Of a stretch of 32,000 nt of DNA, positions 986 through 20,210 are shown in pieces. Source of the DNA: Deltaproteobacteria bacterium. Lineage in GTDB: Bacteria; Desulfobacterota; Binatia; Binatales; Binataceae. Each line of letters starts with the position of its first letter. Positions within the stretch are counted from its first letter, which is position 1. A program made the translations under genes and the position numbers. The notes beneath the pieces are model-generated. The model made no database searches. It was not told the DNA's origin and saw nothing but the letters and a program-made list of their open reading frames with translations. Where the stretch lies: contig JAJYRQ010000004.1 in the NCBI GenBank assembly GCA_021794015.1, positions 72,901-104,900 of the forward strand, in the 5' to 3' direction.

Positions 986-2848
986 TCAGGGTAACTGTTC
1001 GACCGATTTTCGTTCCAGCGCCTGTTTGATTGCCTGGTTCATGATCCGCTCGGCAAAGGGCGTTGTGAGTTCGTTGAGTTCCTGGGTGAGCCGCGCGATA
1101 AGCTCGTGGTCGGTGCCTAGGCGGGCGGCCTCGAGCCGCGCCGCGCAGCGGTCGATGGCGGTGCGCTCCTGCGGCTCGACCAGCGCCGGGAAGTTGGCAA
1201 GCTGGCGGCGCGCCGCCTGGAGAATCTGGTCCGCCTGGTTGCGCGCGACCGCCAGCATCCGCTGTTCGAGGTCCTGCTCTCCTCGCTCGATCGACTCTTC
1301 GAGCATCCGCTCGATTTCCTCTTCGGTCAGCCCGTAGCTCGGTTTTACCTCGAGTGAGTGCTCACGGCCGGTGCGCTGGTCGCGGGCGGTAACGTTCAGG
1401 ATGCCGTTGGCGTCGATAAGAAAGGTCACCTCGATGCGCGGCGTGCCGGCCGGCGCCGGCTCGAGCGGTCCGAGCTTGAAGCGAGCCAGCGAGCGATTGT
1501 CGTGCGCGATCTCGCGCTCGCCCTGGACCACGTGAATGTCGACGTGGGTCTGGTCGTCCACCGCGGTGGTGAACATTTCGGTGACGCTGGTCGGTATCGT
1601 GGTGTTGCGATGGATGAGCCGTTCCATGACGCCGCCCATCGTTTCGATGCCCAGGGAGAGCGGCACCACGTCGAGCAGAAGCATGTCCTTGCGCCCGCCG
1701 GTCAGAACCGCAGCCTGGACCGCAGCTCCCAGCGCGACCACTTCGTCGGGGTTGATGGAACAAAGAGGCTGGCGGCCAAACAGTTCGGCTACCCGCCGGC
1801 GCACCAGCGGCATCCGGGTTGCCCCGCCCACGAGCACCACCGCGTCGAGCTCCTCTGGCTTGAGCTTGGCGTCCTCGAGCGCGCGCCGGCAGCAGGCCAG
1901 CGTACGGTTCACCAGTGGCTCGGCCATCCTCTCCAGTTGCGAGCGTTCAAGCTCGCGGCGCACCGTTATGTCTGCGGCCTGGAGCACGAGCTCGGTACGC
2001 TCGGCGGCGCTGAGCCTGCATTTGGCGGCTTCGGCAGCAGTTCGGGCCGCCCTCCAAAGCTGCCGGCTTTGACGCAGCGGCGGGGACAACTGCTCCATCA
2101 GCCACTCCTCGATCAGGCGGTCTATGTCGTCGCCCCCCAGGTGCGTGTCGCCGTTGGTGGCCAGGACCTCGAAGATGCCCTCCTTGACGCTTAGCAGCGA
2201 GACGTCAAAGGTCCCGCCGCCCAGATCATATACCGCAATACGGCCCGCCGTCATTGCGTTAAGTCCGTAGGCCAGGGAAGCGGCGGTCGGCTCGTTCACC
2301 AGCCGGACAACTTCAACTTCCGCCAAGCGGCCGGCGTCCTTGGTGGCCTGCCGCTGGGCATCGTTGAAGTACGCCGGCACGGTAATTACCACCCGCTCGA
2401 CCGATTCACCGCTGGAGGCCTTCACCCGCGCCTTGAGCGCGCGCAGGATTTCGGCCGAAACCTGCGGCGGGGTATATAGACGGCCGCTCACCTGGAAACG
2501 CACCACCGGGCCGCCTAAGTCGGCGAAGCTGTAGCGTATGCGGTCCTCGGGCGCGACCTCGGCGCCGCCCAGCCCCATGTAGCGTTTGACGGACCTGACC
2601 ACGACCGCTGCCGGCGCGCTCCCGGCCTGATCGCCAGGACCTTGCCCCCGGCCCCAGTCGTCCAGTTTGCCCTCAAGCTCGGCCGCCTTCAGACCCACGC
2701 CGATTGTGCCCTCCGGGCCCAGCGCTACGACCGACGGCAGCAGGGTTGCTCCGGTGGCGGGATCGCCGATAATCCGCGGGCCGGCGTCTTCCATCACGGC
2801 AATCAGGCTGTTGGTGGTGCCGAGGTCGATGCCGAATATGCGCGACAT
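986..2848 (-). CDS. hscA: Fe-S protein assembly chaperone HscA (Hsp70 family)
   Basis: 620 aa. The N-terminus [15 protein letters not shown] and the motifs [21 protein letters not shown] and [10 protein letters not shown] fit Hsp70. Position after hscB in an isc operon supports HscA. Confidence 0.95.
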
Positions 2849-4058: not shown

Positions 4059-4478
4059 CTAGGCCTCTGCGGCCGTCTTCTTGGACTGCTCGGCGGCGTT
4101 GCCCCGGTGTTTCTTCCAGTCGCTAATTGCGGCCTTTATCGCATCCTCGGCAAGCACCGAGCAGTGAATCTTTACCGGCGGCAGGTTCAGCTCCTTGACG
4201 ATTACGGTGTTCTTGATCGCCAGCGCCTCGTCGATATGCTTGCCCTTGACCAGTTCCGTGACGTAGCTGGAGGACGCGATCGCGCTGCCGCAGCCGAAGG
4301 TCTTGAACCGGGCGTCCTCGATAACGCCGCCCTCATCGATCTTAAGCTGGAGCTTCATAACGTCTCCGCACTCGGGAGCGCCGACGACGCCCGTGCCGAC
4401 GCTCGGATCGTCCTTTGCGAAGCTCCCGACATTGCGGGGATTGGTGTAGTGGTCAATCACCTTGCTGGAGTACGCCAT
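4059..4478 (-). CDS. iscU: Fe-S cluster scaffold IscU
   Basis: MAYSSKVIDHYTNPRNVGS, GAPECGDVMKL, FGCGSAIASSS, and LPPVKIHCSVLAEDAI (the LPPVK HscA-binding motif). Confidence 0.95.
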   Translation of the reverse strand: MAYSSKVIDHYTNPRNVGSFAKDDPSVGTGVVGAPECGDVMKLQLKIDEGGVIEDARFKTFGCGSAIASSSYVTELVKGKHIDEALAIKNTVIVKELNLPPVKIHCSVLAEDAIKAAISDWKKHRGNAAEQSKKTAAEA

Positions 4479-4687: not shown

Positions 4688-5908
4688 CTAGTCTGTTCTC
4701 CACTGGACCGACTTGAGGTCGATTCCCTCGCGCGCCATCTCATAAAGCGGCGACATTTCGCGCAGCCGCTTTACCTCCTTGGCCACCCGATCGACGACGT
4801 AGTCCACCTCTTCCTCGGTGTTGAAACGGCCCAGGCCGAACCGGATCGAGCTGTGCGCGAGTTCCTCGCCGACGCCCAGCGCGCGGATCACGTACGAGGG
4901 TTCCAGCGTGGCCGAGGTGCAGGCCGAACCTGAACTTACCGCGATGTCGCTGATTCCCATCAGCAGCGACTCGCCCTCGACGTAGGCAAAGCTCACGTTG
5001 AAGTTGCCGGGCAAGCGCTGGGTCGGGTGTCCGTTCAGGTAAACCTCATCCAGCCGCTCGAAAACGCCGGCCTGCAGCTTGTTGCGCAGGTCGGTCAGCC
5101 GGCGCGCCTCGGCGGCCATCTCGGCCGCCGCGATCTCGCATGCCGCTCCGAAACCGACGATCCCCGGCACGTTGAGCGTTCCCGAACGCATCCCGCGCTC
5201 GTGACCGCCGCCGTCGATTATCGGCGCAAGCCGCACCCGCGGTCCCCGTGACCGCACGTACAGCGCGCCCAATCCCTTGGGGCCGTAAATCTTGTGCGCC
5301 GTCAGCGAAAGCAGGTCGATCCCGTCGCGCTCAACGTCGACTCCAATCTTGCCGACCGCCTGCACCGCGTCGCAGTGAAACAGAATCCCCTTGTCCTTGG
5401 CAATCTTGCCGATCTCCGCTACCGGGTGAATCGTGCCAATCTCGTTGTTGGCGTACATGATCGTGATCAGCACGGTCCTGTCGGTGATCGCCTGGCGCAC
5501 GTCGTCAGGGTCCACCATGCCGTACTTGTCCACCGGCAGGTAGGTTACCTCCGCCTTGCCCAGCCGTTCCAAGGCCCGACAACTGTCGAGCACCGCCTTG
5601 TGCTCGGTCACGCAGGTGATGATGTGGTTGCCTTTCTCCCGGTAGAACTCAACGACACCCTTGATCGCCAGGTTGTCCGATTCGGTGGCCCCGCTGGTGA
5701 AAATGATCTCCTTGGACTTGGCGTTAAGCAGCGAGGCGATCGTGGCGCGCGCCTTTTCCACCGCCTCTTCCGCCTCCCAGCCGAAAGCGTGATTGCGGCT
5801 GGCCGCGTTGCCGAACTTCTCGCTGAAGTAAGGCAGCATCGCCTCCAGCACCCGCGGGTCAAGCCGCGTGGTTGCGTGATTGTCCATGTAAATCGGCAGC
5901 TTAACCAT
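4688..5908 (-). CDS. iscS: Cysteine desulfurase IscS (PLP-dependent)
   Basis: 406 aa. [13 protein letters not shown]-type N-terminus, [12 protein letters not shown] (PLP lysine) and the active-site loop [13 protein letters not shown] Shine-Dalgarno precedes the ATG. Confidence 0.95.
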
Positions 5909-6256: not shown

Positions 6257-8098
6257 TCAGAAGAGCCTGTCCCGAGCGTCTTGGGGCGATTCGTTGGGCA
6301 GGCAACTGGGCACCCGCAGGACCAGTTCACGGCAGACTTCCTCCTCGGCGCGTCGTAAGCGAACGTCCCGCAGTTCGAGCAGGCCCAATCCGGAGTCGAT
6401 CAGGATGTCGGTAAAAGCGATGGCCGGCTTGATGCCCATGGCGTAGCGGCCGCCGTCAACGCCCACTAGTTGTTGCCCGGTCGTTCCCGAGACCAGCGTG
6501 ATGTGCAGGTTGACGTGCCAGCCGGCGACGAGGAAGCCGTAGAGACCTTCGTACGCACTGACATCGCCGTAGACCAGGGCGTCGGCGCCAAGCCAGCGGG
6601 CTAGCTGGCGGGCGGGGACGGCTTCGAGCCGGGACGTGGTCAGGACGGAGTGTGCGGCGAGCGTGGCATCGACCTCGGGCAGCGGCACAATCGTGAATTC
6701 GCGTTGGGCGAGAAAGGCGGTAAAGACCCGGCGAAGCCGGTTGGCGTAGGTCCAGCGCCAGCGGGAGCGCGAGGCGGCGGTGCGAAGCGTGACCGGCACG
6801 CGGTTTACCAGCAGGTTGCCGCTTCCTTCGTAGGCAAAGGGCAGCACCGCGATGCGCTGCGGGGGCCTGCGGCAGTAGTCGGGCGCGACCTTGAGCGCAA
6901 ACATCTGCGGGTCGGTTTCGATCATGCGGTCGAGAATTGTTTTGCGGCCGTGCCTGCGCAATCCAAACTCAGGCAGGAAGAACTGCTCAGGCTTTTCGTC
7001 GGGGTCGCCGTAGCCGGTGGCCAACGCTGCGAGTACCGGCGCGGTGGCCAACGCCGACGGGCCCGGCGGTTGCGCAGCGGTAACTCGCGCCGAGGTCGGC
7101 AGCGTTTCGGCGCTCTGGCTGAGGCCGTTGGGCGGCGCAGGACCCGGCCGCTGGCCGGAGGCGTCCGCTCGGCTGCTCGGCGCCGCGTCGGAGGCCGACG
7201 CGGCCATCGCCTGGCGGTCGCGTGCTTGAGCGGGGCGCCCGCTCAAGACCACCCCGCGCACTCCGCCCACCAGAGGAAAGCGCAGCACGACCTCGCGCGC
7301 GGCTTCCTCTTCGGCGCGCCTTAGGTCGACGTCGCGCAAGTCGGTGGTGTTGAAAGCCGAGTTCATTGCGATGTCGGCCCAATCTACGGCTGGACGGAAC
7401 TCCAGTTTGTAGCGCGTGGCCTCGCCGGCCAGAACGAGATCGCCGGTTTGCCCGGAGACTATGGCAAGTTTGAGGGTTACCTCCCAGCCGGCAAGCAGGA
7501 ACAGGTAGTAGACTTCGTAGTGCAGGACGGCGCCGTAGACAACGGTGTCGGCTCCGAGCCAGCGGGCCAGGGTTTGCGGCGGCACTCGGCTGAGCTTGGC
7601 GTCGTTGGTGATGCCGTGCGCGGCCAGGGCGGCGTCGACCTGCGGGAGCGCGACGGTTTCGAATTCCCGCTGGCTTAGGAAGCCGTGCACGAGCTTGCGC
7701 AGCCGGTTGGAATCGGTCCAGCGCCACTCGGCCAGGCGCTCGGAGTCGCGCATGGTGAGCGGGAGCTTGTCCAGGATGTAGTTTCCGCTGCCGCGGTCAA
7801 CGAAGGGTAGAACGGCGATGCGCAAAGGCGGATGGTGGCGGTACTCGGGCGAGGTTTCGACGCTGACGCCGCCCGGATCGGTCTCCAGAATCCGGTCAAG
7901 CAGCGTCTTTCTGCCGTGTTCCATCGCGCCGTACTCCGGCAGAAACAGCGGCTGAGTGTTGCGCTCCTGCTGGGCCGTCGCCGCGGCGCATCCGGCCAGC
8001 AGGGCCAGCGTTACGAGCCACAACGCGCGCGCACGGCTAGGCCGGCTCCTGCGATGCCGACGACTCGTGCGCCCGTTTCTGTCAGGGCAAAAAGCCAA
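6257..8098 (-). CDS. Lipoprotein with two tandem DUF799/GNA1162-like domains joined by an Ala/Pro/Ser-rich linker
   Basis: Lipobox LALLAGC after an Arg-rich n-region. The TTG start is preceded by AGGGA. Two homologous ~240-aa halves each carry FLPE(Y/F)G..HGRKT(L/I)LDR, RIAVLPF, FL(S/A)QREF, ARWLGAD..VYG, AGW.V.L...(I/L)VSG.TG and LRDV.LRRAEEE. Confidence 0.75.
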   Translation of the reverse strand: MAFCPDRNGRTSRRHRRSRPSRARALWLVTLALLAGCAAATAQQERNTQPLFLPEYGAMEHGRKTLLDRILETDPGGVSVETSPEYRHHPPLRIAVLPFVDRGSGNYILDKLPLTMRDSERLAEWRWTDSNRLRKLVHGFLSQREFETVALPQVDAALAAHGITNDAKLSRVPPQTLARWLGADTVVYGAVLHYEVYYLFLLAGWEVTLKLAIVSGQTGDLVLAGEATRYKLEFRPAVDWADIAMNSAFNTTDLRDVDLRRAEEEAAREVVLRFPLVGGVRGVVLSGRPAQARDRQAMAASASDAAPSSRADASGQRPGPAPPNGLSQSAETLPTSARVTAAQPPGPSALATAPVLAALATGYGDPDEKPEQFFLPEFGLRRHGRKTILDRMIETDPQMFALKVAPDYCRRPPQRIAVLPFAYEGSGNLLVNRVPVTLRTAASRSRWRWTYANRLRRVFTAFLAQREFTIVPLPEVDATLAAHSVLTTSRLEAVPARQLARWLGADALVYGDVSAYEGLYGFLVAGWHVNLHITLVSGTTGQQLVGVDGGRYAMGIKPAIAFTDILIDSGLGLLELRDVRLRRAEEEVCRELVLRVPSCLPNESPQDARDRLF

Positions 8099-8272: not shown

Positions 8273-9223
8273 TCACACGCCCAGCGCCTTTGCCGCCAGA
8301 AAACTAACTGTCAGCAGCACGGCGAACTCCAGGTGGAGTTGCGCTTCGAGGTTAATTGCCGGGTGGAGCGCTGCGCCCTCGCTTGCGCGGCAAAGCCTAT
8401 GGACCTTAAGCGCGTGCGGCAGCGTTGCCAACACCACCAGGCCCGTAACGGGTACCGTCCGCGTCACCACCCCGGCGAGCACGGCGCCGTAGGCGGCGGC
8501 GTTAAAGCACGCCAACTCCCAAAACGCGCCTCGCCGGCCGAGAATTGTGGCCAAGGTGCGCTTGCCGTGGGTGCTGTCGCTGGCGATATCGCGCAGGTTG
8601 TTCACCTGCAGGATGCCCGATCCGAGAAAGCCCATCGAAAGCGATACCCAGACCGCAGCCGCGGAAAATTTAAGCGCCGTGACGTAATAGGCGCCCAGTA
8701 CGATGGCCGGTCCCAGAAAAAGAAACGACAGCAGATCGCCCAGCGCAAGGTAGCCCAGCGCCAGCGGCGCCCCGGTGTAAAAGTAGCCGGCGGCTACGCT
8801 CGGCACGCCGATGGCCAAGACCGGCCATCCGCATCGGTAGGCAAGCCAGAGGCCGATCGCCGAGCCCAGTGCAAAGGCGGCTACGCCTCCGGCCCAGACC
8901 TGTTCAGGGCGCAAGAAGCGGCGCTGGATGGCCAGGCTTGGTCCAAAATTCTCCACCGCCAGCACGTCGAAGGAGTCCACGCCGCTGACGAAATCGCTGT
9001 AATCGTTCACCAGGTTGGTCCCCGCCTGTATGGCGACCGCGCCGATTAGCGCCAGCACAAACCTCACCGGCGAGAAATGGCCGTGGTAGACGGCCGCCGC
9101 GGTTCCCACCAGCACCGCCCCCGAGGAGACGGTCAGCGTCCACGACCTGGCCGCTACGATCCAGGTCATCAGCTTGCCGGGCCTTCCCTGACTATCCTCC
9201 AAGATCGCTTCTGTCTGCGTCAT
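8273..9223 (-). CDS. menA: UbiA-superfamily prenyltransferase, MenA type (1,4-dihydroxy-2-naphthoate polyprenyltransferase-like)
   Basis: NLVNDYSDFVSGVD (NDYxDxxxGxD) and NNLRDIASDSTHGKRTLA (NNxRDxxxDxxxGKxTL). The N-terminus aligns with E. coli MenA (W...R..TL....A..VGTA.A...GHF.P). Polytopic and hydrophobic. Start uncertain: ATG at 9277, 9223 or 9169. Confidence 0.8.
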   Translation of the reverse strand: MTQTEAILEDSQGRPGKLMTWIVAARSWTLTVSSGAVLVGTAAAVYHGHFSPVRFVLALIGAVAIQAGTNLVNDYSDFVSGVDSFDVLAVENFGPSLAIQRRFLRPEQVWAGGVAAFALGSAIGLWLAYRCGWPVLAIGVPSVAAGYFYTGAPLALGYLALGDLLSFLFLGPAIVLGAYYVTALKFSAAAVWVSLSMGFLGSGILQVNNLRDIASDSTHGKRTLATILGRRGAFWELACFNAAAYGAVLAGVVTRTVPVTGLVVLATLPHALKVHRLCRASEGAALHPAINLEAQLHLEFAVLLTVSFLAAKALGV

Positions 9224-9424
9224 AAGCCCGCGTCCCCGCCATCTTGGCTCTGCGGTACCAGCCACCGGCGCGCCCATGGGCCACCGGTGGCAGAGCCGCT
9301 CGTCGCGGATGACGAAGGTTGAATCTAGCAGGCTCGCCGCCTGGGCTCCACATCTCCCGAGCTGCGGCGAGCTTACTGTCCGGCAGCGGCCGATGCCGGC
9401 GAGGTGCGGTAAAGAGGGCGGACG

Positions 9425-10216
9425 CTACGGCCCTGTGCTGAGAAACTGCTGTTGCTCGCCTTCCAGGACCAGACAGGTCAGAATCCCGCTTTCGTAGGCG
9501 CCGGTGTCGATCCCGATGCGATTGTGGCGTACGTCGGGAGCCGTGCTGATGCAATGCCCGTGCACCACGATGGCGCCGAAATCGGCTTGCGAGGTCACGA
9601 ACCGCTTGCCGATCCAGAGCAGGTCCCGGTCGCTCTGGGCGTCTATCGGGACGCCGGGGCGGACCCCGGCATGAACGAAAAGATAATCACCCTCGCGGTG
9701 GCGGACTTTGAGCGCTCGGAAGAACTGCAGGTGGGATGCCGGCATCTGGCTGGCGACCCGGGCGCGCAGCTCTGCCAGGGCTGCCGCGCTCTGGACCCCT
9801 GCGGGTGGTGTGGCGATCCCGTAGCTGGCCAGGGTGTCGCGCCCGCCGTAGGTGAGCCAATGGCCCCCCGCTTCGTCGTCGCCGTCCAGGAAGCGAAGCA
9901 GGAGGTCTTCGTGGTTGCCCTTGAGGGCGACCGTTTCGAAGCCGGCAAGGGGTTGTCGCACCAGGGTTTCGACCGCGCGGCAGGAGTCGGGACCGCGGTC
10001 GATGTAGTCGCCCAGATAGACCGCCACGCGGCGCACGGCCGTTGCCCGTCGGGCGTTGTCGCGGATCGCCGCGTGGATGCGGTCCAGCAGGTCGGCCCGC
10101 CCGTGAACGTCACCGATCACGTAAACGACGCATCCGGAAGGTACACGCCCGGCGGGCGCTCCCGGCCCCTCGCCCGCCGGCGGCAGACGAAAGGGAGGCG
10201 GAAAAGGCTCATTCAT
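9425..10216 (-). CDS. Calcineurin-like metallophosphoesterase (PPP family, PrpA/ApaH-like)
   Basis: Motifs VIGDVHGR, YLGDYIDRGP, LKGNHE and VHGH. Its ATG overlaps the ubiX stop by 8 nt (GCGGATGAATGAGCC). Confidence 0.8.
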   Translation of the reverse strand: MNEPFPPPFRLPPAGEGPGAPAGRVPSGCVVYVIGDVHGRADLLDRIHAAIRDNARRATAVRRVAVYLGDYIDRGPDSCRAVETLVRQPLAGFETVALKGNHEDLLLRFLDGDDEAGGHWLTYGGRDTLASYGIATPPAGVQSAAALAELRARVASQMPASHLQFFRALKVRHREGDYLFVHAGVRPGVPIDAQSDRDLLWIGKRFVTSQADFGAIVVHGHCISTAPDVRHNRIGIDTGAYESGILTCLVLEGEQQQFLSTGP

Positions 10217-10790
10217 CCGCCGGCTCCGGCCGTTCGCCCCAGCGGCGGAAAAGCGAGTGCTCGATGCCGAACTGGTCGAGCGCCTTGCCGATGGTCTGAT
10301 GGATGAGATCCAGGATCGTCAGGGGACGATGGTAAAAGGCGGGCACCGGCGGCAGAATGACCGCGCCCAGGTCCGCAGCCTCAGCCATAAGCTTCAGGTG
10401 GCCTTTGTGCAGGGGCGTTTCCCGCACCATCAGGACCAGCCGCCGGCGCTCCTTGAGCGTTACGTCGGCGGCACGCCCGACCAGATTTGCGGCCGCCGAG
10501 TTGGCGATCGCCGATAGGGTCTTGATACTGCACGGAGCCACGATCATACCCCGGGTAGGAAACGACCCGCTGGCGGGCGCGGCGCTGAGATCCTCGCTGT
10601 CATAGACCACGTCGGCCATGGCCTTGACTTCGGCCAGCGAGTAGGCGGTTTCGATCTTGAAGTTTCGCGCCGCCGCCTCGCTGATTATCAGGTGAGCCGG
10701 CGCGCCCAGCCTGCGCAGCGCCTTGAGCGTCTCGACGCCATAAATGACGCCCGAGGCGCCCGTGATGGCGACCAGCAGCGGCGCGGTCAC
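10209..10790 (-). CDS. ubiX: Flavin prenyltransferase UbiX (prFMN synthase)
   Basis: 193 aa. LVAITGASGVIYG, MIVAPCSIKTLSAIANS, AADVTLKERRRLVLMVRETPL, PPVPAFYHRP. The GTG start overlaps the upstream stop (GTGA). Confidence 0.92.
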   Translation of the reverse strand: MTAPLLVAITGASGVIYGVETLKALRRLGAPAHLIISEAAARNFKIETAYSLAEVKAMADVVYDSEDLSAAPASGSFPTRGMIVAPCSIKTLSAIANSAAANLVGRAADVTLKERRRLVLMVRETPLHKGHLKLMAEAADLGAVILPPVPAFYHRPLTILDLIHQTIGKALDQFGIEHSLFRRWGERPEPADE

Positions 10791-11383: not shown

Positions 11384-13063
11384 TCAGGTCTTGCTTGCCT
11401 TCAACGGGAACTCGGGGGAGTCTGCGGTTAGGCGGCTGTCGATTTGCTGTCGCAGCGCCTTTTTGTCGACCTTGCCCGAATCGCCCACCGTCGGCATCGA
11501 AGCTACCATCTCGAGCCGTTCTGGGAACTTATACCGGGCGATCTTTTTCTCGGCCAAAAAGCGGGTCATCGCTTCAAAGCTGAACGTCCGGCCCGGCCGC
11601 GTCACGACGCAAGCCGCGGCGCGCTCGCCGTACACCGGGTCGGGGATTGCGACCACGGCTACCGCGGCGACTGCGGGATGCTCGTTGAGCAGGCCCTCGA
11701 CCTCGGCCGGGTAGATGTTCTGCCCGCCCCGGATAATCACATCCTTCTTGCGTCCTAGCACCCACAGGCAGCCACGCTCCATCTTGACCACATCCTCGGT
11801 TGTGGTCCATCCCTCGGCGTCAAAGACCTGCGCCGTCAAGGCGGGATCACGGTAGTATCCGGCGGGAGCGTGTGGCCCACGTATCCAGAGCACGCCGGGC
11901 TCGCCGTCAGGCGCTGCCGTGCCGGCGTCGTCGAGCAGCCGCACCTGGTTGCCCGGCAGCGGGCGGCCCACGGTACGGCGGCGCAAATCAGCCGGATCGT
12001 TGACCTGGCAGCCGGAGACCGACCCGCGGTCTTGCGTGCCAAGGTCGCTGGTGATGACGGCACCGAGCCGCCGTTCCGCCTCTTCCGCTAACTGAGGCGA
12101 GAGATAGCCGCCGGCGCAGCGGATGAACCGCAGCGCTGATAGGTCGTAATCCTCGGGTTTGCTTTCCAGCATCCGCACCAGGTGCGTGGGCACGACCCCG
12201 ATGGCGGTGACTCTCTCCCGGGCCATCAACTCAAGCGCAGTTTGCGGATTGAACTCTTCGAGCATCACCGTTTTGGCGCCGACCAGCGGCGCAGCGAAGT
12301 AGGTCAGCGTCCCGGCGGCGCCGCCGGCGTGGGGCGCCACCGCCATGGTCACGTCGTCGGCGCGCAGTTGCCACAGCTCGACGCGCGCCTTCGAGGTGCA
12401 CAGCCGCGGCGCAATCGGCCATTCCACCAGCTTGGGGAGCCCGGTGGTGCCGCTGGTGGTGGTCAGCAGCGCCACATCCCAAAACGGGTCCAGCCGCCGG
12501 CGCGCCAGCGTCGCCGGCTCGGCCTTGTCCAGGTAGTCGCGGGCCGCTCTGACCAGTGAGCGCACGCCAGCCGTGTCGCCAGCCGGAAGCTCCGCGTCGA
12601 AAAGGTAAATTCGCGTCAGGCTGGGGAACCTGCCCATCAGCTCCCGGTACATGGCCAGGTAGTCGAAGTCGCGGTAGCGGCGCGGGATGACCGCCATGCT
12701 GGCCTGGGTCTGCTCGACCATATATTCCAGCTCGGCCTGGCGCAGGTAGGGGTAGGCGGTAAGGGAAATCAGGCCAGCACGCTCGCAGGCGATGCGTGCC
12801 AGGAAGCCGTAGACGCTGTTGGGCGCCTGGACGATCACGCGGGCGTCGCGCGGCAGCCCGTCATCGATCCAGGCCGCCGCGATGGCGTCGACGAGGCGCG
12901 CGGCCTCGGCCCAGGTGACCCGGTAGTTGGAATCGACGAGCGCTTCCCGGTCCGGCCGCTCGGCCGCATTGCGTTGGTAGAAGTCGTAGAAAGTCTCGTT
13001 GGTCCAGTGGCCTTGGCGTACGAACTCGTCCACCATCGGGGGAAGGTAACGGATCGGCCTCAT
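11384..13063 (-). CDS. AMP-forming aryl/acyl-CoA ligase (class I adenylate-forming enzyme)
   Basis: 559 aa. AMP-binding core TTSGTTGLPKLV. The EntE/DhbE-like aryl-acid ligase N-terminus (YR..G.W....F.D...RNA...PDREALVD) and C-terminal motifs (IIRGGQNIYPAEVE, GKVDKKALR) are present. Confidence 0.85.
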   Translation of the reverse strand: MRPIRYLPPMVDEFVRQGHWTNETFYDFYQRNAAERPDREALVDSNYRVTWAEAARLVDAIAAAWIDDGLPRDARVIVQAPNSVYGFLARIACERAGLISLTAYPYLRQAELEYMVEQTQASMAVIPRRYRDFDYLAMYRELMGRFPSLTRIYLFDAELPAGDTAGVRSLVRAARDYLDKAEPATLARRRLDPFWDVALLTTTSGTTGLPKLVEWPIAPRLCTSKARVELWQLRADDVTMAVAPHAGGAAGTLTYFAAPLVGAKTVMLEEFNPQTALELMARERVTAIGVVPTHLVRMLESKPEDYDLSALRFIRCAGGYLSPQLAEEAERRLGAVITSDLGTQDRGSVSGCQVNDPADLRRRTVGRPLPGNQVRLLDDAGTAAPDGEPGVLWIRGPHAPAGYYRDPALTAQVFDAEGWTTTEDVVKMERGCLWVLGRKKDVIIRGGQNIYPAEVEGLLNEHPAVAAVAVVAIPDPVYGERAAACVVTRPGRTFSFEAMTRFLAEKKIARYKFPERLEMVASMPTVGDSGKVDKKALRQQIDSRLTADSPEFPLKASKT

Positions 13064-13115: not shown

Positions 13116-14612
13116 TCAAGTGCCCGGCTTTTTCTGGGTCGAAGGAGCGGCCGGGCGGGTCAGGCGGTCGATCATCTGCGCCACCGGACTTGAGCCGGCG
13201 AAGCCGTACTCATTCCAGCGTTCGGAGACCTTTTGCAGCACGGTCCGGTCCATGAAAATTTCCCGGGGCTTTTTCTTCCACTCAAAGGGCGTGCAGGCGT
13301 CGAGCAGGATGCGGCTGGTTATTTCGCGCGCCTCGATGGGCAGTCCGGGGTCGAGCGGGGTGGAGCGGCCGCGGTCGATAATCTGGGCCGAGCGCTTGGG
13401 ATCGAAGCGGGTTGCCAGCGCCCACATCACGCGGTCCCAGTCGTCGGCGGCGACGTCGTGGTCCACCACAATTACGCCCTTGACGCCGTAGTGCCCGGTG
13501 GTGCTCGCGATCACCGCGTTGGCCACGTGGTTGGAATGCCCGGGGTACATCTGGCGCACCGACACGATCACCCAGTAGCGTCCGCAGGCCTCGGGCGGGA
13601 TGTAGACGCTCTGGATGCCCGGTACGCGCATGGTTTGCAGGTCGGACCAGAGCGTGGCGGTGCGGTTGAGCGACTGGATCATGTGAATGTCGTTGATCGG
13701 CTTACCCACGGTCGTGGCCCAGAAAATGGGATTATTGCGGTGTAGGATGCGCTGAACCCTGAGCGCCGGCTTCGGCCACTCCTCGTCGGCGTTGCCGGAA
13801 TAATAGCCGGTGTACTCGCCGAACGGCCCCTCGGGGTGCAGGTCCTTCGGGTCGATGTAGCCCTCAAGAATAATCTCGGCCGTGGCCGGCAGCTTGAGCC
13901 CGGTAAGATCGGACTCGAACACCGGCACCGGCGCCTGGCGCAAGGCTCCGCAGACGTCGTACTCGTCGGTTTGGGCGCTGACCAGCGTCGAGCTGGCCAG
14001 GAACAGGACCGGATCGCAGCCGATGACGGCCGCGGCCGGCATCACCTCGCCCCGTGCCTCGTGTTGCTTGAGCATCATGTCCCCGTGCTTGCCCTTGATT
14101 ATCTGGCAGCCGGCAAGGTCTTTGCCCAGTATCTGCATCCGGTAGGTGCCCAGGTTGGTCCAGCCGGTTTCCGGGTCTTTGGTCACCAGGTAGACTGCGG
14201 TGCCGATGAAGCGGCCGCCGTCCTCCGGGTAAAACCAGGGAGCGGGAAACATGTTGAGATCGACGCGGCTTCCCGTGAGCACGTTCTCCATTACCGGCGG
14301 CTGCTCGAATAACCGCGGCTTGATCAACTGGCGCGTGGTCAGCTCCATCCAGCGCTTGGAGAGCTGGCTCATCGAGAGAGCGGGGTCCTGCTCAAGACAG
14401 ATGGCGAGGCGCTGCGGCGTGGTAAAGGCGCTGGTCAGGACCGGAATCCGGTACCCTTTGACATTGCTATAGAGGAGCGCGGGCCCCTTCTGCTCTTCGT
14501 TCACCTTGGAGACGTGGCAGAGTTCCAGGTTCCAGTCGACTTCCGTTTTGACCTCGTGCAACACGCCGCGTTCCCTGCACGCGGCGATGAAATCTCTTAG
14601 GTCGCGGATCAT
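13116..14612 (-). CDS. UbiD-family prFMN-dependent (de)carboxylase
   Basis: 498 aa. MIRDLRDFIAACRERGVLHEVKTEVDWNLE.. is a typical UbiD N-terminus, and length and overall pattern fit. GGAGG lies 7 nt upstream of the ATG. Confidence 0.9.
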   Translation of the reverse strand: MIRDLRDFIAACRERGVLHEVKTEVDWNLELCHVSKVNEEQKGPALLYSNVKGYRIPVLTSAFTTPQRLAICLEQDPALSMSQLSKRWMELTTRQLIKPRLFEQPPVMENVLTGSRVDLNMFPAPWFYPEDGGRFIGTAVYLVTKDPETGWTNLGTYRMQILGKDLAGCQIIKGKHGDMMLKQHEARGEVMPAAAVIGCDPVLFLASSTLVSAQTDEYDVCGALRQAPVPVFESDLTGLKLPATAEIILEGYIDPKDLHPEGPFGEYTGYYSGNADEEWPKPALRVQRILHRNNPIFWATTVGKPINDIHMIQSLNRTATLWSDLQTMRVPGIQSVYIPPEACGRYWVIVSVRQMYPGHSNHVANAVIASTTGHYGVKGVIVVDHDVAADDWDRVMWALATRFDPKRSAQIIDRGRSTPLDPGLPIEAREITSRILLDACTPFEWKKKPREIFMDRTVLQKVSERWNEYGFAGSSPVAQMIDRLTRPAAPSTQKKPGT

Positions 14613-14659: not shown

Positions 14660-15739
14660 TCAGCCCAGCCGCTGGCCGGCCAGGATCGTTGAAAGGATCA
14701 GGTCCATGGGCGACGCGCCCGCAGGCGAGGCCGGCACGCGCGCCTTGTTGCTCCAGACGGTCTCGGGGCGCGCCTGCAGGATGAAGACATCGGTTGCTCC
14801 CGCAGTCCCCCGTTCCACCGCCCATTCGAGGTCGAGCGGGTAGCCGTAATGCTGTTCGAGGCGCTTGCCGATGCCCGCCAGCTCGACGATTTCCTCGTCG
14901 CGCAGTGAGGGCGCCTCCTGCAGCTCGGCGGCCAGCTCGAAGCGCCGCGAAACCTGGCTTTCGCGGTCGACCGTATAGTAAACCTGCTTGCGCGAAACGA
15001 CGCGGCGGAGAATCTCCAGGCCGACCTTGTTGACCATGAATTCGTCGGGGGTAACTTCGCCGCCTACCACCGATTCGCCGAAACCGAAGTTGGCGTTGAT
15101 AAGGATGGTCGACGGGTCGCCGTTGGAGGGATTTAGGGTGAACATCACTCCGGCCGCCGATGAATCGACCATCTTCTGCACGCCGACGCAGATCGCCACC
15201 TTGTCGTGGTCGAAGCCCATCCGAGCGCGGTAGGCGAGCGCCCGCGCGCCGAAAAGACTCGCAAAACATCGCCGCACGTACTGCAGCACCTGGCCGGCGC
15301 CACGAATCCAGAGAAAGGAATCCTGTTGGCCGGCGAAGCTGGCGTTGGGCAGGTCCTCGGCCGTGGCGCTCGAGCGTACTGCAACCGCAACCGCCGCATC
15401 GCCGCAACGTTCGCCCAGTCGGCGGTAGAACTCGGCGATCTCGTCTTCCAGTTGTGCGGTGAATGTTGCGCTTTCAAGATGGGCGCGGATTTCGGCGCTC
15501 GCCGCATCCAGCGCTTGCGGGTCGCGGTAGTCGAGCTGTTCGAGGTGCGAAGCGAGAAGGTGCTGCGCGCCGCTCCCGGCCAGAAACTGCCGATAACCCG
15601 CAACGGTTACCGCAAAGCCCGGCGGGACCAGCGCTCCGGCGCGCATCAACTCGCCCAGCGAGGCGCACTTGCCGCCCACCAGCGCGGTCGAACCTTGGCT
15701 GCAGTCGTGCAGCCAGCAGACCAGCGGACTCGCCTTCAT
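14660..15739 (-). CDS. PEP-synthase-like ATP-binding subunit (PPDK_N/ATP-grasp), phenylphosphate synthase beta (PpsB)-like
   Basis: LVGGKCASLGEL..AG..VPPGFAVT is the hallmark N-terminus of the pyruvate-phosphate-dikinase/PEP-synthase nucleotide-binding domain. At ~360 aa (~40 kDa) it lacks a His swivel domain. I prefer the ATG at 15739, preceded by GAGGGAAG, over 15763. Confidence 0.8.
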   Translation of the reverse strand: MKASPLVCWLHDCSQGSTALVGGKCASLGELMRAGALVPPGFAVTVAGYRQFLAGSGAQHLLASHLEQLDYRDPQALDAASAEIRAHLESATFTAQLEDEIAEFYRRLGERCGDAAVAVAVRSSATAEDLPNASFAGQQDSFLWIRGAGQVLQYVRRCFASLFGARALAYRARMGFDHDKVAICVGVQKMVDSSAAGVMFTLNPSNGDPSTILINANFGFGESVVGGEVTPDEFMVNKVGLEILRRVVSRKQVYYTVDRESQVSRRFELAAELQEAPSLRDEEIVELAGIGKRLEQHYGYPLDLEWAVERGTAGATDVFILQARPETVWSNKARVPASPAGASPMDLILSTILAGQRLG

Positions 15740-15821
15740 CGTGCTTCCCTCGACTCCTCGCAACCCAGCGCCAGGGCTTGGTAGGCTGAGGGCGCAGGCG
15801 CTACCGCGCCCTGACGCCGGC

Positions 15822-17669
15822 CTATGGAACGACCGTGATGGTGCCCTCGGAACCGTCGACGCGAATCGTCGTGCCGCTTTTTATCACCGAGGTTGCCGAC
15901 CCGGTGCCGACCACGGCCGGCACACCGTATTCACGGCAGACGATCGCCGCGTGGCACATGACGCCGCCGACGTCGGTGACGCAGGCCTTGATCTTGACGA
16001 ACGCCGGCGCCCACGACGGCGAGGTGGTGGGAGCCACCAGGATTTCTCCTTCCTGGAGTTCGCCGATCTCCTCGACGGAGCGGCAGACGCGAGCCTTTCC
16101 TTCGACCACGCCGGGACTTCCGGCAAAGCCGGTAAGCCGGGGGATGCTGGCTCCGTCGCCCGCCTCGCGCAGCTTCGCCCAGGCGTTGAGCGATTCGTTG
16201 GTTATGCCCCAGAGCACCACGGTAAAAGGCTCCTGGATGATCTCCGGCTTGGTGCCGACGGCCGGCGGCGGCCTCCAGGCGCGAAACTTCTCCATCACGC
16301 CCTTGCGCCACTGGATTTCCTGGGGCCACACCTTGGGACCGCGCGGCTTCACGCCCGTTGCCCAGGCGGTCACCAGGTCCCACAGCGCGTCCTTGATCTC
16401 GGCGCGTTTGAGGTACCAGATGTCCTCGACATCGTGGATAAACCCGTGCTCCTTCATGATTGCGGCGACTTCGCGCAGCTTGTTCCAAAACTCCGAATGG
16501 AACCAGTGCTCGACGTAGAAGAGGTGGTTCTCAACGTAGGGGAAGACAGTCCTGGAGGTGCCGAGGAGCTGATCGAAGGTGGCGCGATCCTGCTCGCTCT
16601 TGATAAGGGCCCGGTATTCGGCGGTGATGCGGTCGCGCTCCGCGCGTATCTGTTCTACCGGACGCTCGATCGCTACGCCTTGGCGAAGCTTGTCAAGGTA
16701 GGTGCGAATCGACGCAAGCGGCAGGTCGAGATCATCATTCCAGCACCTGTCATGGTGGTACCAGCCGGTGCCGGCGGAGATGTAGAACCACGGATCGCGC
16801 ACCTCGGCCAGCGCGGCCAGCCATTTCCGCCCGGCCTCGGTGCCCTTTAGCGCCGTTTCGACCTGGGCGAAGCCGCCGCTTGAACTCAACACGCCGTCAA
16901 CGCCAAGTTCGAGCGCCTTGCGTGCCAGCTTCTTCAGCTCGTCGTCCGGCCGATACATGATGGTCTCGATGCCGGCCACCATCTGCGCCAGCCGCAGACT
17001 CGGAACGTCCGGGAACAACTTGCGGCAAAAATCCAGGAAGGTCACATAGGCCGCGTAGCCGAGATTGAGAAACTCGAAGTGGTACTGCCAGCAGCGAATC
17101 CCCAGGTCGATCAGCTGATCGTAGGCGCGCAGCAGATGGTAGCCCTTGGATTCACCCACGCCTTCGAACACCACGCGGCTGTCCTCGAGCGCCGGCAAAG
17201 GCTCGATCTTGAGCGCGCGCAACTCACCGATGGTTGCCTTGAGCTTGGTCTCCCATTTGGCCACCAGGCGGTCCCAGTTCTGGTAATAATAGCCGGCCCG
17301 TTCCATGAAGTGGGCGACCCGAGCTTCGATTTCCTTCGGATCGGTGACCGGCACCGGGCTGATGTAGAGGTAGCCGTTGACGATTCGGTGGTCTACGCCG
17401 TAGACCGGCGGAATGGCGAAGATGCGGGTGTTGTATTGCGAGAGGGCGAGGAACCAGGCTTCGTCCCAGATGATGTCGAAAGGATACATCGGTTCGGGGT
17501 AGTGTAGCCCGTCGTAAAACCAGAACATCTTCTCTTCGTAGGCGCGCCGCTCCGGGTCGTCCGTCACGAAACGATAGTGGTAGGGGTAGATTCGCTCCCA
17601 ACCCTCGGTTCCCGGGATGGCTTCGACGGCATGGGGAAGCTGGAACTCTGCCTTGGATTTGGCGCTCAT
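15822..17669 (-). CDS. PEP-synthase-like phosphohistidine subunit, phenylphosphate synthase alpha (PpsA)-like
   Basis: 615 aa (~70 kDa). The C-terminal PEP-utilising mobile domain reads GSPGVVEGKARV....GEILVAPTTSPSWAPAF.K..A.VTDVGGVMCHAAIVCREYGVPAVVG (catalytic His). The large N-terminal domain is unrelated to the PEP/pyruvate-binding domain. Confidence 0.8.
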   Translation of the reverse strand: MSAKSKAEFQLPHAVEAIPGTEGWERIYPYHYRFVTDDPERRAYEEKMFWFYDGLHYPEPMYPFDIIWDEAWFLALSQYNTRIFAIPPVYGVDHRIVNGYLYISPVPVTDPKEIEARVAHFMERAGYYYQNWDRLVAKWETKLKATIGELRALKIEPLPALEDSRVVFEGVGESKGYHLLRAYDQLIDLGIRCWQYHFEFLNLGYAAYVTFLDFCRKLFPDVPSLRLAQMVAGIETIMYRPDDELKKLARKALELGVDGVLSSSGGFAQVETALKGTEAGRKWLAALAEVRDPWFYISAGTGWYHHDRCWNDDLDLPLASIRTYLDKLRQGVAIERPVEQIRAERDRITAEYRALIKSEQDRATFDQLLGTSRTVFPYVENHLFYVEHWFHSEFWNKLREVAAIMKEHGFIHDVEDIWYLKRAEIKDALWDLVTAWATGVKPRGPKVWPQEIQWRKGVMEKFRAWRPPPAVGTKPEIIQEPFTVVLWGITNESLNAWAKLREAGDGASIPRLTGFAGSPGVVEGKARVCRSVEEIGELQEGEILVAPTTSPSWAPAFVKIKACVTDVGGVMCHAAIVCREYGVPAVVGTGSATSVIKSGTTIRVDGSEGTITVVP

Positions 17670-17911: not shown

Positions 17912-17942
17912 ATGATTTGGTCAAATCATTGGTGAAATCGTT
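17912..17942. promoter_or_regulatory. Candidate activator-binding UAS: 18-bp palindrome plus tandem 12-mers
   Basis: ATGATTTG-GT-CAAATCAT (17912-17929) is a perfect 8+2+8 palindrome. It overlaps the tandem 12-mers GGTCAAATCATT and GGTGAAATCGTT (17919-17942). The element is AT-rich in a GC-rich background and lies ~130-160 bp upstream of the -24/-12 element. Confidence 0.45.
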
Positions 17943-18018
17943 TGATCCGAGCCGGCCCAGGGTGCGAATATGGTCAAGCAATCCTCCCGGTGTTCGCGGC
18001 TTTTGGAGGGCCAGGGCA

Positions 18019-19812
18019 ATGAATCGACCGCAGTTGGCAGGTATCGATTGGATGTCACACGGGACTCCCTGTCCTTTGGCTGTTGCAGCGACCGAATGCC
18101 CGCTTGGCCTCAGCACGCTCGACGCCATTGTGCCGGACATGAGGGACCTGGTCGTGCGCCTGCGCTTTGCGCCGGAAGAGGGCGAGATCCGGCTCGACGC
18201 TGAGCGAGTAGCCATAATGCACCTGTCGACGTTTGCCGCGCTGCGCCGGGAACTTATCGATCGGCTGGGCGTGCCGCAGGCGCGCGGCCTGTTCATGTCG
18301 ATGGGGTATGCCAGCGGGATGCGCGACGCCGGGATGGCGCGTGCCACGCACGCAGGCGACACGGTGCGCAACGCGTTTGTGGTGGGTCTTCAACTGCGAA
18401 GGCTTCAGGGCTTCGCGGCCGCCAAGGTTGAGCGGCTGGAGATCGATGTTGCCGGCGGGTGCTTCGAGGCCGAGTTCGCCGCCTCGGGCTCTTGTGAAGT
18501 CGAGGCCCACCTGACGGTTTACGGCAGTGCCGCGGCTCCGGCGTGCTGGATGCTGGTCGGGTATGCGTCGGGTTATGCCAGCGCGTTTCTGGGTCGTGCC
18601 GTCTTGTTCAAAGAGACCGAGTGCCGAGCGACAGGGGCTGTTGAATGCCGCATCGTGGGCAAGCCGGTGGGTCAATGGAGCGACGAGGAGGACCTGCCTG
18701 CGCTACAGCCGGCGGCAGTTGCCGGCCAGATGCTCGCGCAGCGCTCCTGGCCCGCGTTCGACCCCCGAGCGACCCCTTTGAGCGAGGAGATGGTTGGGCA
18801 GTCGCCCGAATTTGTCGCCGCCTGCCGGCTTTTGCAAAGGGTTGCCGGCACTGAGGCGACGGTACTGCTGCAAGGGGAAACCGGTGTTGGCAAGGAGATG
18901 TTCGCCCGCGCCCTGCACCGCATGAGCAAGCGCGCCCCCGGTCCCTTCGTTGCCGTCAACTGCGCCGCAATTCCGGAAAATCTCATTGAAGCCGAGTTGT
19001 TCGGCGTGGAGAAGGGCGCCTTCACGGGCGCAGCATATTCGCGGCCGGGCCGGTTCGAACGTGCCGACACCGGCACTCTGTTTCTGGACGAGGTGAGCAG
19101 TCTGCCGCTGGCCGCCCAGGCCAAGCTTTTGCGCGCCATCCAGGAGCGCGAGATCGAGCGCGTAGGCGACGTCAAAGCGCGCAAAGTGGACGTGCGGATC
19201 GTGGCCGCAACCAGCGTGAACCTGGCAAACGCAGTCTCAGCCGCGCTGTTCCGCGACGATTTGTATTTTCGGCTAAGTGTGTTCCCCTTGCACATACCAC
19301 CGCTGCGGGCGCGGCGCGAGGATATCCCGCTGCTAGTGCAGCGCTTCGCCGGCCGCTATGCCCGGCTCTACGGGCGCGAGATCGGCGGCCTCACGGCGGG
19401 CGCGCTCGAACGGCTGCTGAACTACGACTATCCGGGGAATATTCGGGAGTTGCAGAACATGGTCGAACGGGCGGTCATCCTTTGCGACAACGGTCGCCCA
19501 CTCGACGTTCAACATTTTCCCCCGTGCGCAGACCAACTGCGGGCGCCGGCAACGGCTGGCTCGGTGGGTGCTGCAGCGCTCGCCTCCCGCGCCAGCACCG
19601 AGGTGCCGGGCGATTGGTCCCCGCTGGTCGAACGCTTTTTCAGCCGCCGCCTGACTTTTCGCGAATTCGAGGAGGCGCTGCTCGCGGAGGCGCTACAGCG
19701 GAGCAATGGTAATCTCTCGGCAGCCGCGCGAATGCTCGGCTTGACCCGCCCGCAGGTTGCTTACCGATTCAAGAAGCGCCAGCGCAGGTCGCTCGAATCG
19801 AGCTGCCGCTGA
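18019..19812 (+). CDS. Sigma-54-dependent transcriptional activator, XylR/DmpR (NtrC) family, with an aromatic-effector-type sensing domain
   Basis: The N-terminal region resembles XylR_N/V4R (RLRFAPEEGEIRLDAERVAIMHLSTFAALRREL...GYASG). AAA+ core: GETGVGKEMFARALH, EKGAFTGA, GTLFLDEV. C-terminal Fis-type HTH: NLSAAARMLGLTRPQVAYRFKK. The ATG at 18019 follows GGAGGG by 8 nt. The ORF-track start at 17917 would cover the palindromic operator. Confidence 0.9.
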   Translation: MNRPQLAGIDWMSHGTPCPLAVAATECPLGLSTLDAIVPDMRDLVVRLRFAPEEGEIRLDAERVAIMHLSTFAALRRELIDRLGVPQARGLFMSMGYASGMRDAGMARATHAGDTVRNAFVVGLQLRRLQGFAAAKVERLEIDVAGGCFEAEFAASGSCEVEAHLTVYGSAAAPACWMLVGYASGYASAFLGRAVLFKETECRATGAVECRIVGKPVGQWSDEEDLPALQPAAVAGQMLAQRSWPAFDPRATPLSEEMVGQSPEFVAACRLLQRVAGTEATVLLQGETGVGKEMFARALHRMSKRAPGPFVAVNCAAIPENLIEAELFGVEKGAFTGAAYSRPGRFERADTGTLFLDEVSSLPLAAQAKLLRAIQEREIERVGDVKARKVDVRIVAATSVNLANAVSAALFRDDLYFRLSVFPLHIPPLRARREDIPLLVQRFAGRYARLYGREIGGLTAGALERLLNYDYPGNIRELQNMVERAVILCDNGRPLDVQHFPPCADQLRAPATAGSVGAAALASRASTEVPGDWSPLVERFFSRRLTFREFEEALLAEALQRSNGNLSAAARMLGLTRPQVAYRFKKRQRRSLESSCR

Positions 19813-19913: not shown

Positions 19914-20130
19914 TGGCCAGGTCAGGGCGAGTTTTGACTTAGGCCGACGCAGGCCGCGGCCCCTGGAAACCTTGTCGGCAAAATCAGCGGCCCTCCCGTC
20001 CCCGCCGCCTTGGGCCTCGCCGGCTATCCGCTACGGCGACCCGTCCGCCGCTGCGGCCAGGACCGGCTAGCAGCCCAGCAGGGAGGGGTAACGAGCCCTT
20101 CTAATGTCGGGGCTTGCCAAAATAAGGTAC

Positions 20131-20158
20131 TTTACAAAGGTCGCTCCGGGGCTATACT
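20131..20158 (+). promoter_or_regulatory. Candidate sigma-70 promoter of the sdh operon (TTTACA-16 nt-TATACT)
   Basis: TTTACA (20131-20136) and TATACT (20153-20158) sit in an AT-richer patch ~55 nt upstream of the proposed GTG at 20211. Confidence 0.4.
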
Positions 20159-20210
20159 TGGGGCGGCATCCCGGGGGTGCGCCAAGTCTAGTCGAGAGGA
20201 GTGTGCAGGA

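Follow-up and report, generated by a model that had tools for sequence, protein, structure and literature searches.

UbiD-family carboxylases and decarboxylases, which are studied for aromatic degradation and for biocatalysis, all need prenylated flavin mononucleotide (prFMN), a cofactor that UbiX makes from reduced flavin mononucleotide (FMNH2) and dimethylallyl monophosphate (DMAP). Flavin mononucleotide (FMN) is abundant in cells; DMAP is not a standard intermediate of the methylerythritol phosphate (MEP) pathway. Poor prFMN supply is a practical limit for UbiD-family enzymes expressed in other hosts. The bacterial source of DMAP, the substrate of UbiX, is known solely from Escherichia coli, where promiscuous Nudix hydrolases and ThiM provide it (PMC12359138, citing Wang 2018). 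The chaperone LpdD, which has a Pba3/4-like fold, binds prFMNH2 (PMC10865409), and the phenol cluster of Thauera has long been known to carry extra open reading frames (ORFs 7-11, 13 and 14; PMC6114531). Here a stretch of 32,000 nucleotides from contig JAJYRQ010000004.1 (hereafter the window), taken from a metagenome-assembled genome (MAG) labelled Deltaproteobacteria bacterium, was analysed for a gene encoding a PPP-family, lambda-phosphatase-like metallophosphoesterase (hereafter MPE) that overlaps ubiX at the end of an anaerobic phenol operon.

Gene identities in the window were assigned from the ORF list and from Pfam and NCBIfam profile searches (Table 1). The operon reads ppsA-ppsB-ppcB-CoA ligase-lpdD-ubiX-MPE on the minus strand, with MPE probably as the last gene. 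Positions 10205-10219 are ggctcattcatccgc on the plus strand and GCGGATGAATGAGCC in the minus-strand reading. The ATG of MPE (10216-10214) lies within the last codons of ubiX, whose TGA occupies 10211-10209, and the two genes share 8 nt (ATGAATGA, 10209..10216 on the minus strand). A GGAG sits 7 nt 5' of this ATG, which is the sole credible start because the only other in-frame start before the GDVHG motif, a GTG at Val33, would delete the conserved first strand. At its other end ubiX begins with a GTG (10790-10788) that runs into the TGA of the LpdD-like gene (10789-10787), forming a GTGA overlap of 4 nt (10787..10790, minus strand). An earlier note on this DNA had described both overlaps, and both were confirmed on reading the sequence. 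Since the remaining junctions of the operon measure 47-126 nt, the tight packing is specific to the lpdD-ubiX-MPE trio.

The pairing of ubiX with this phosphatase recurs. Homologues of 50-60% identity are numerous. A scan of species-representative genomes returned at least 590 relatives of the phosphatase, and the best 80 were surveyed by tblastn. In the surveyed genomes ubiX was found within the flank at 17 loci (L001 counted), all 17 of which are pps/ppc clusters, and further linked loci were recognized (L082-L085 and L165-L167). Across different species and metagenomes, about 24 loci thus have a phosphatase orthologue downstream of ubiX, and every one of them is a pps/ppc cluster. The adjacency, which the earlier note had allowed might be peculiar to a single genome, is not unique.

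The linked clusters fall into two types. In type A, which is Aromatoleum-like, ppcD, ppcA and ppcC are present and the phosphatase follows ubiX at a distance of 1.0-3.0 kb; the interval holds a riboflavin kinase and a NUDIX gene, to which a PaaK-like ligase or a 153-aa ORF is added in some clusters. The cluster of Aromatoleum toluvorans, for example, reads ppsABC-ppcBDAC-ubiD-ubiX-(CTP-dependent riboflavin kinase)-NUDIX-phosphatase-porin. In type B, to which the window is similar, a ppcB-type gene is the sole ubiD and the phosphatase stands immediately after ubiX. The type B junction between ubiX and MPE measures -8 to +4 nt (negative values being overlaps) in 8 of 8 loci tested and likewise in L082, L083 and L167: it is -4 nt in L006, L010, L020, L025, L082, L083 and L167, +3 to +4 nt in L013, L036 and L053, and -8 nt in the window. 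In L082 it is the sole overlapping junction of a seven-gene operon, which ends there. The tight junction persists while the neighbouring genes vary, with either a CoA ligase or a UPF0261 protein, and either PpsC or an LpdD-like protein, encoded nearby. Within the available sequence, ppcD, ppcA and ppcC were not found in the window or in type B clusters, and neither NUDIX, riboflavin kinase nor PpcD was found in type B loci, the window included, except L006, L011 and L025; the whole 32-kb window yielded no homologue of PpsC, PpcA, PpcC, PpcD, NUDIX or riboflavin kinase. MPE is the sole accessory hydrolase present in all linked clusters.

The MPE protein matches PF00149 (Metallophos) with an E value of 1e-10 and 42.8 bits against a cutoff of 21.5, and carries the motifs GDVHG (residues 35-39), GDYIDRG (69-75), GNHE (100-103), HAG and VHGH. 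The C-terminal metal-ligand histidines H182, H219 and H221 are invariant across the family alignment, as are the metal ligands generally and the phosphate-binding Arg74, in linked copies as well. An arginine equivalent to Arg74 is required in relatives for terminal-phosphate (monoesterase) chemistry (PMC2190708). An AlphaFold2 model of MPE, with a predicted local distance difference test score (pLDDT) of 90, matched lambda phosphatase in Foldseek with an E value of 7e-12; the top fold matches were lambda phosphatase (1g5b), RLPH2 (5vjv), a trypanosome diadenosine tetraphosphate (Ap4A) hydrolase (2qjc) and PNKP (4j6o), and the best solved relatives by sequence and fold further include PP5 and ApaH. 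The protein scored 37.1 bits on the ApaH equivalog NF001204 (cutoff 176), in a match limited to the N-terminal 80 residues, 33.1 and 32.6 bits on the PrpA/PrpB equivalogs NF007425 and NF008516 (cutoffs 332 and 326), and far under the cutoff on the PrpE model. MPE thus belongs to the PPP superfamily and to no characterized subfamily of it. Metallophos was the sole domain found: there was no match to PpcD (TIGR02726, HAD family), a model to which the genuine PpcD of L001 matches at 371 bits, and a NUDIX domain was absent from MPE and from the entire window. The description that best explains these features is that of a predicted cytoplasmic dinuclear-metal phosphohydrolase. A Rosetta-stone fusion was also sought among the homologues and rejected, the sole long one (P0066, 365 aa) merely having a low-complexity tail.

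In a neighbour-joining tree all of the linked copies fell in a single clade, in which L005 is the sole unlinked member. Bootstrap support for the linked clade was 84% without the window copy, 89% with the window copy optional and 45% with it forced inside. The tree placed the window copy at the base of the clade, and because support falls to 45% when it is included, that copy is either basal or uncertainly placed. The one-residue insertion of the clade (G112) and R174 are present in it, and its residues are otherwise those typical of unlinked relatives. The contig of L005, from a Sulfuritalea MAG, is short (L005 1-7080): the phosphatase follows genes for a thiamine pyrophosphate (TPP) enzyme (IOR-like), a rubrerythrin-like protein and a tungsten-type aldehyde:ferredoxin oxidoreductase (AOR), a MarR regulator gene comes after it, and the 5.4 kb upstream contain no ubiX. 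The same IOR/AOR genes lie directly downstream of the phosphatase in L165.

The active sites of the linked copies have drifted. In PPP enzymes such as PP1 and lambda phosphatase, an Asp-His pair protonates the leaving group. A literature search on the part played by Asp52 and His76 of lambda phosphatase returned nothing of use. The Asp of this pair, in motif II (GDxxDRG), is replaced by Ser or Asn in 16 of 18 linked copies (GDYVSRG, for instance); it is kept in 63 of 63 unlinked proteins, with the GNH[ED] motif intact in 62 of these and not detected in the remaining one. Within the linked set the Asp is kept in the window copy (GDYIDRG) and in L010, both of which retain the two residues of the pair. 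The His of GNHE is also lost in several linked copies, namely L020 (GNRD), L026 (GNVE) and the P0110 type (GNNE). The subgroup of P0110 and P0115 (L082 10001-10858) has an insertion of about 28 residues in the helical cap, and with GNNE and a motif II Asn it lacks both general-acid residues. E. coli ApaH, a phosphoanhydride hydrolase of the PPP family, has Ala at the position of the motif II Asp (GDLVARG). The loss of Asp and His in linked copies argues for a substrate whose leaving group is good, as opposed to phosphoserine or phosphothreonine.

It is tentatively proposed, at somewhat less than an even chance, that MPE is a small-molecule phosphohydrolase feeding UbiX, recruited into the anaerobic phenol carboxylation operon as part of a prFMN supply module made up of the LpdD-like chaperone, UbiX and the phosphatase. 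In this scheme MPE would strip the terminal phosphate of dimethylallyl diphosphate (DMAPP) to give DMAP, UbiX would condense DMAP with FMNH2 to prFMNH2, and the LpdD-like protein would pass prFMNH2 to the PpcB-type UbiD carboxylase; the overlapping stop and start codons would tie the synthesis of MPE to that of UbiX. We infer DMAPP as the substrate, the direction of metabolite flow and any physical contact with UbiX. Several observations favour this proposal: the tight, conserved junction is specific to ubiX and lpdD, and the active site has drifted toward that of ApaH; the linked copies form a clade of their own, retaining the metal ligands and Arg74; MPE of type A sits among cofactor-supply genes (ubiX, riboflavin kinase, NUDIX) and outside ppcBDAC; no other helper hydrolase is retained in most type B clusters; and DMAP, unlike FMN, does not belong to the standard metabolites of bacteria with the MEP pathway.

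A number of findings weigh against DMAP supply as the role of MPE. The NUDIX gene near ubiX in type A could itself, given the E. coli precedent (PMC12359138), encode the DMAPP hydrolase and leave MPE without this work, and a benzene culture has been reported to make a NUDIX-ubiD-ubiX transcript (PMC5852087). The linked clade occurs only with phenylphosphate synthase, an association with aryl phosphate as strict as that with UbiX. In the window copy the Asp-His dyad is intact and bootstrap support inside the clade is 45%, and the closest solved relatives of MPE are protein phosphatases. Finally, in a UbiX-centred metagenome scan of the 80 closest UbiX loci, the 54 with at least 800 nt of downstream sequence being taken as informative, a PPP-type gene was near ubiX in 2 of the informative loci, both of them type B phenol clusters. 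The idea of the phosphatase as a general partner of UbiX was thus not borne out, and since 52 of the 54 lack it, UbiX has no general need of the phosphatase. Even among pps/ppcB clusters with ubiX, L090, L100 and L104 have no phosphatase, and L100 and L104 have an LpdD-like gene; relatives of the latter adjoin ubiX at 13 of the 80 loci scanned.

The other substrate proposed in the earlier note was an aryl phosphate. Here MPE would act on phenylphosphate, either standing in for PpcD and giving phenolate to PpcB, or serving as a safety valve for phenylphosphate and for off-pathway aryl phosphates of a promiscuous synthase, a reading we hold to be doubtful. It draws on the confinement of UbiX-linked copies to phenylphosphate synthase clusters, none being found with ubiX alone, and on the missing ppcD, ppcA and ppcC of the window and type B clusters; RLPH2, a PPP enzyme of closely related structure, is specific for phosphotyrosine. 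PPP enzymes of this type hydrolyse aryl phosphates well, as lambda phosphatase does p-nitrophenyl phosphate (pNPP). Without the general-acid Asp, phenolate, which is the nucleophile for carboxylation, might be released more readily; yet phenol, with a pKa of about 10, leaves less easily than the group freed from a phosphoanhydride, so that the loss should hurt this reaction. That PpcD by itself hydrolyses phenylphosphate only slowly (PMC6114531) counts in favour of this reading. Against it, ppcD and MPE coexist in type A clusters, and the ppcB-only clusters L090, L100 and L104 manage with neither MPE nor a nearby ppcD. Nor does MPE ever adjoin ppcB: its place at or after ubiX, at the end of the operon, would better suit a low-abundance cofactor enzyme than a stoichiometric subunit, and a free phenylphosphatase would set up an ATP-wasting futile cycle. 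That MPE is instead a regulatory or stress protein phosphatase (Ser/Thr/Tyr/His) travelling with the cluster, dephosphorylating, for example, an enzyme or a regulator of phenol metabolism, appears unlikely. Lambda Ser/Thr phosphatase, RLPH2 and PP5 are the best sequence and fold matches, the window copy, to which this reading applies best, retains the full protein-phosphatase catalytic set, and 63 of the 81 family loci surveyed, mostly in Alphaproteobacteria, are unlinked to ubiX and stand in varying contexts, among them sensor proteins and genes for polysaccharide or lipopolysaccharide (LPS) sugars. Geobacter metallireducens reportedly controls pps/ppc post-transcriptionally, as Schleinitz is said to have described in 2009. 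However, the clusters share no conserved kinase or evident phosphoprotein partner. The Asp needed for protonation of poor leaving groups, serine and threonine among them, is gone from most linked copies, and the His required likewise from some. A conserved stop-start overlap with a cofactor-synthesis gene would be unexpected for a regulator, so that the coupling is left unexplained.

Two further possibilities were considered. MPE might be a cofactor-supply hydrolase of another phosphoanhydride, splitting flavin adenine dinucleotide (FAD) to FMN and AMP, or acting on cytidine diphosphate (CDP), on further nucleotide by-products or on those of Ap4A type that the AMP-forming ligase releases, with DMAP coming from NUDIX or host enzymes. 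The positional and active-site evidence would be the same, and type A pairs MPE with a riboflavin kinase and a NUDIX protein of unclear specificity, whose best NCBIfam match is NAD+ diphosphatase at a score far under the cutoff; against this, FMN is abundant and DMAP is no regular intermediate of the MEP pathway, so a cluster that keeps a single helper for UbiX should keep the DMAP supplier, and the ApaH and PrpE model scores are far under their cutoffs. We judge it quite improbable. A non-hydrolytic MPE, whose dimetal site and Arg would hold the phosphate of FMN or prFMNH2 so that it acts with UbiX and the LpdD-like protein as an oxygen-independent maturation or hand-over factor, seems very improbable indeed; such a role would account for the retention of metal ligands and Arg in linked copies alongside the loss of the general-acid Asp or His, and non-hydrolytic members of the fold exist, the epimerase MslH being one.

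The contexts of the unlinked relatives hint that the ancestral role of the phosphatase family was different, possibly regulatory. When ORFs flanking the phosphatase at the 63 unlinked loci were clustered, no neighbour was common to more than 12 loci, and the most-shared group, present in 12, proved to be an antisense ORF over the phosphatase gene itself. Among real neighbours a sensor-like protein of 709 aa came first, at 10 loci, followed by a sugar epimerase/decarboxylase at 9 and an HldE-like enzyme at 7. In 10 alphaproteobacterial loci the sensor-like protein of about 709 aa is encoded directly upstream on the same strand.

The window PpsB-like protein is 53-59% identical to the ppsB products of other pps clusters, the slot of the aryl-CoA ligase is filled by homologues of 65-71% identity in L013, L036, L053, L090 and L100, and the divergent arrangement of the XylR/DmpR-type regulator is also seen in L082 and L167. 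In addition to its PF21758 score, the 156-aa LpdD-like protein gave a weak match to solved LpdD (8pzh; E 1.8e-4, residues 42-138); because LpdD is a known chaperone for prFMNH2, the label given in the earlier note is reasonable, and the gene product is presumed to be a prFMNH2-binding chaperone. This gene occupies the slot that a PpsC-like CBS gene holds in every other type B cluster (L020, L025, L036, L053, L082 and L167 were compared). The LpdD-like protein was considered as a form of PpsC and rejected, there being no similarity between the two. The lpdD-ubiX-phosphatase combination was seen in the window only; the closest lpdD-ubiX pairs (L086, L087, L098 and L104) lack the phosphatase.

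Table 1. Coordinates of genes in the window and of selected accessory genes in linked clusters (L numbers denote other loci).
Feature	Position	Strand	Profile match or remark
PPP-family (lambda-phosphatase-like) metallophosphoesterase MPE, 263 aa	9425..10216	-	PF00149
UbiX flavin prenyltransferase, 193 aa	10209..10790	-	NF004685 243.7 bits (cutoff 188); TIGR00421 237.2 bits (cutoff 108.9)
LpdD-like protein (Pba3/4-like fold), 156 aa	10787..11257	-	PF21758 (PAC_bac) 122.9 bits (cutoff 27)
AMP-forming aryl-CoA ligase, presumed 4-hydroxybenzoate-CoA ligase	11384..13063	-	PF00501 and PF13193
UbiD-family carboxylase, PpcB type (phenylphosphate carboxylase beta)	13116..14612	-	TIGR02724 589 bits (cutoff 469)
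PpsB-like phenylphosphate synthase subunit (PPDK_N domain)	14660..15763	-	PF01326, E 8.5e-109
PpsA-like phenylphosphate synthase subunit (PEP-utilizers mobile domain)	15822..17669	-	PF00391; NF006152 1101 bits
XylR/DmpR-type sigma-54 activator, divergent, presumed phenol sensor	17917..19812	+	XylR_N, V4R, Sigma54_activat, HTH_8
MenA-like UbiA prenyltransferase	8273..9277	-	TIGR00751 124 bits (cutoff 102)
GNA1162-like lipoprotein, large	6257-8098	-	downstream of MPE
IscS-like cysteine desulfurase	4688-5908	-	isc-type set
IscU	4059-4478	-	isc-type set
HscA-like Hsp70	986-2848	-	isc-type set
Succinate dehydrogenase / fumarate reductase-like flavoprotein and iron-sulfur subunits	20010-23592	+	beyond the regulator
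Riboflavin kinase	L001 8934-9371		PF01982; 4-nt overlap with ubiX
Riboflavin kinase	L165 7564-7956		PF01982; 4-nt gap to ubiX
Riboflavin kinase	L166 7538-7939		PF01982; 1-nt overlap with ubiX
UPF0261 protein	L082 7364-8635		slot of the aryl-CoA ligase in the window and other loci
UPF0261 protein	L083 7367-8635		same slot
UPF0261 protein	L167 6425-7675		same slot
153-aa ORF between NUDIX and phosphatase (some type A clusters)	L165 8500-8961		
153-aa ORF between NUDIX and phosphatase (some type A clusters)	L166 8484-8945		

The riboflavin kinase coupled to ubiX in betaproteobacterial phenol clusters is CTP-dependent and of the archaeal type (PF01982), which is unusual for bacteria. In some type B operons a UPF0261 (PF06792) protein is encoded between the ppcB-type ubiD and ppsC, and in L167 its gene overlaps ubiD by 4 nt. 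The 153-aa ORF of L165 and L166, which overlaps the NUDIX gene by 4 nt in L166, had no Pfam match and no solved relative was found; it was considered as an LpdD-like protein and rejected for want of similarity to that of the window.

The MenA-like gene lies 148 nt downstream of MPE on the same strand. Because no homologue of it was found near the phosphatase at any other surveyed locus, it is probably a separate, coincidental housekeeping neighbour outside the module. The MenA-like enzyme, too, consumes prenyl diphosphates. Nothing terminator-like was found between MPE and menA, candidate sites being no more numerous than in shuffled sequence. Farther downstream lie the lipoprotein gene and the isc-type set. 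Beyond the regulator, extensive overlap in different frames between the ORFs at 20987-22843 and 22240-23592 makes it probable that the true start of the iron-sulfur gene lies downstream of the listed one.

No paper giving the MPE gene a function, or linking a metallophosphoesterase with UbiX or DMAPP, was found in the literature search, nor was anything relevant that connects riboflavin kinase, Nudix or phosphatase genes with phenylphosphate clusters, the original Thauera papers lying outside the scope of that search. The earlier note was aware of no description of the DMAPP role, or of the replacement of PpcD, for such a phosphatase, and none was found in the searchable literature. As far as could be determined, the conserved stop-start coupling to ubiX, the separate linked clade and the loss of the general-acid dyad within it are new. 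MPE is a concrete and cheaply testable candidate for a dedicated DMAP supplier in a pathway of high demand. Were it to act on phenylphosphate, this would explain how ppcB-only phenol carboxylases work without a delta subunit, a question that dates from studies of Geobacter and Desulfatiglans. Either role, if true, would give a function to an unexplained gene of phenol clusters and a new class of substrate to the phosphatase family.

Among known systems, lambda Ser/Thr phosphatase (1g5b) is the best match to MPE in both sequence and fold, and the two have in common the three N-terminal PPP motifs, an HWLxxGG segment and the C-terminal His ligands. Identity is about 21%, however, and MPE has a longer helical insert after GNHE. 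Unlike lambda phosphatase, PrpA and PrpB, it is encoded in a catabolic operon in overlap with ubiX, and most of its linked orthologues are without the motif II Asp. ApaH and PrpE, which have the same superfamily and motifs, show that the PPP fold can cut phosphoanhydrides, and ApaH lacks the motif II Asp as most linked orthologues do (GDYVSRG); E. coli ApaH is 24% identical to MPE, which has none of the ApaH cap insertions and in the window copy keeps the Asp. RLPH2 (5vjv), third in the fold search, matches MPE in the N-terminal motifs (E 5e-5) and prefers an aryl phosphate, phosphotyrosine. Its plant group was named for likeness to alphaproteobacterial PPP enzymes, and Alphaproteobacteria are home to most unlinked relatives of MPE; at 18% identity, RLPH2 differs in having extra C-terminal elements and in acting on proteins. 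The function proposed for MPE, DMAP supply, is performed in E. coli by NudJ, NudB, NudF and NudI together with the prenol kinase ThiM (PMC12359138). These are promiscuous housekeeping enzymes of unrelated folds whose genes are unlinked to ubiX, whereas the MPE gene overlaps it. PpcD, the delta subunit of Thauera phenylphosphate carboxylase (TIGR02726), is like MPE a phosphatase of anaerobic phenol clusters, but it has the HAD fold, its gene lies between ppcB and ppcA, and it coexists with MPE in type A and is absent from the window. Set beside these systems, MPE is a new functional variant inside a well-known superfamily and not a new kind of system.

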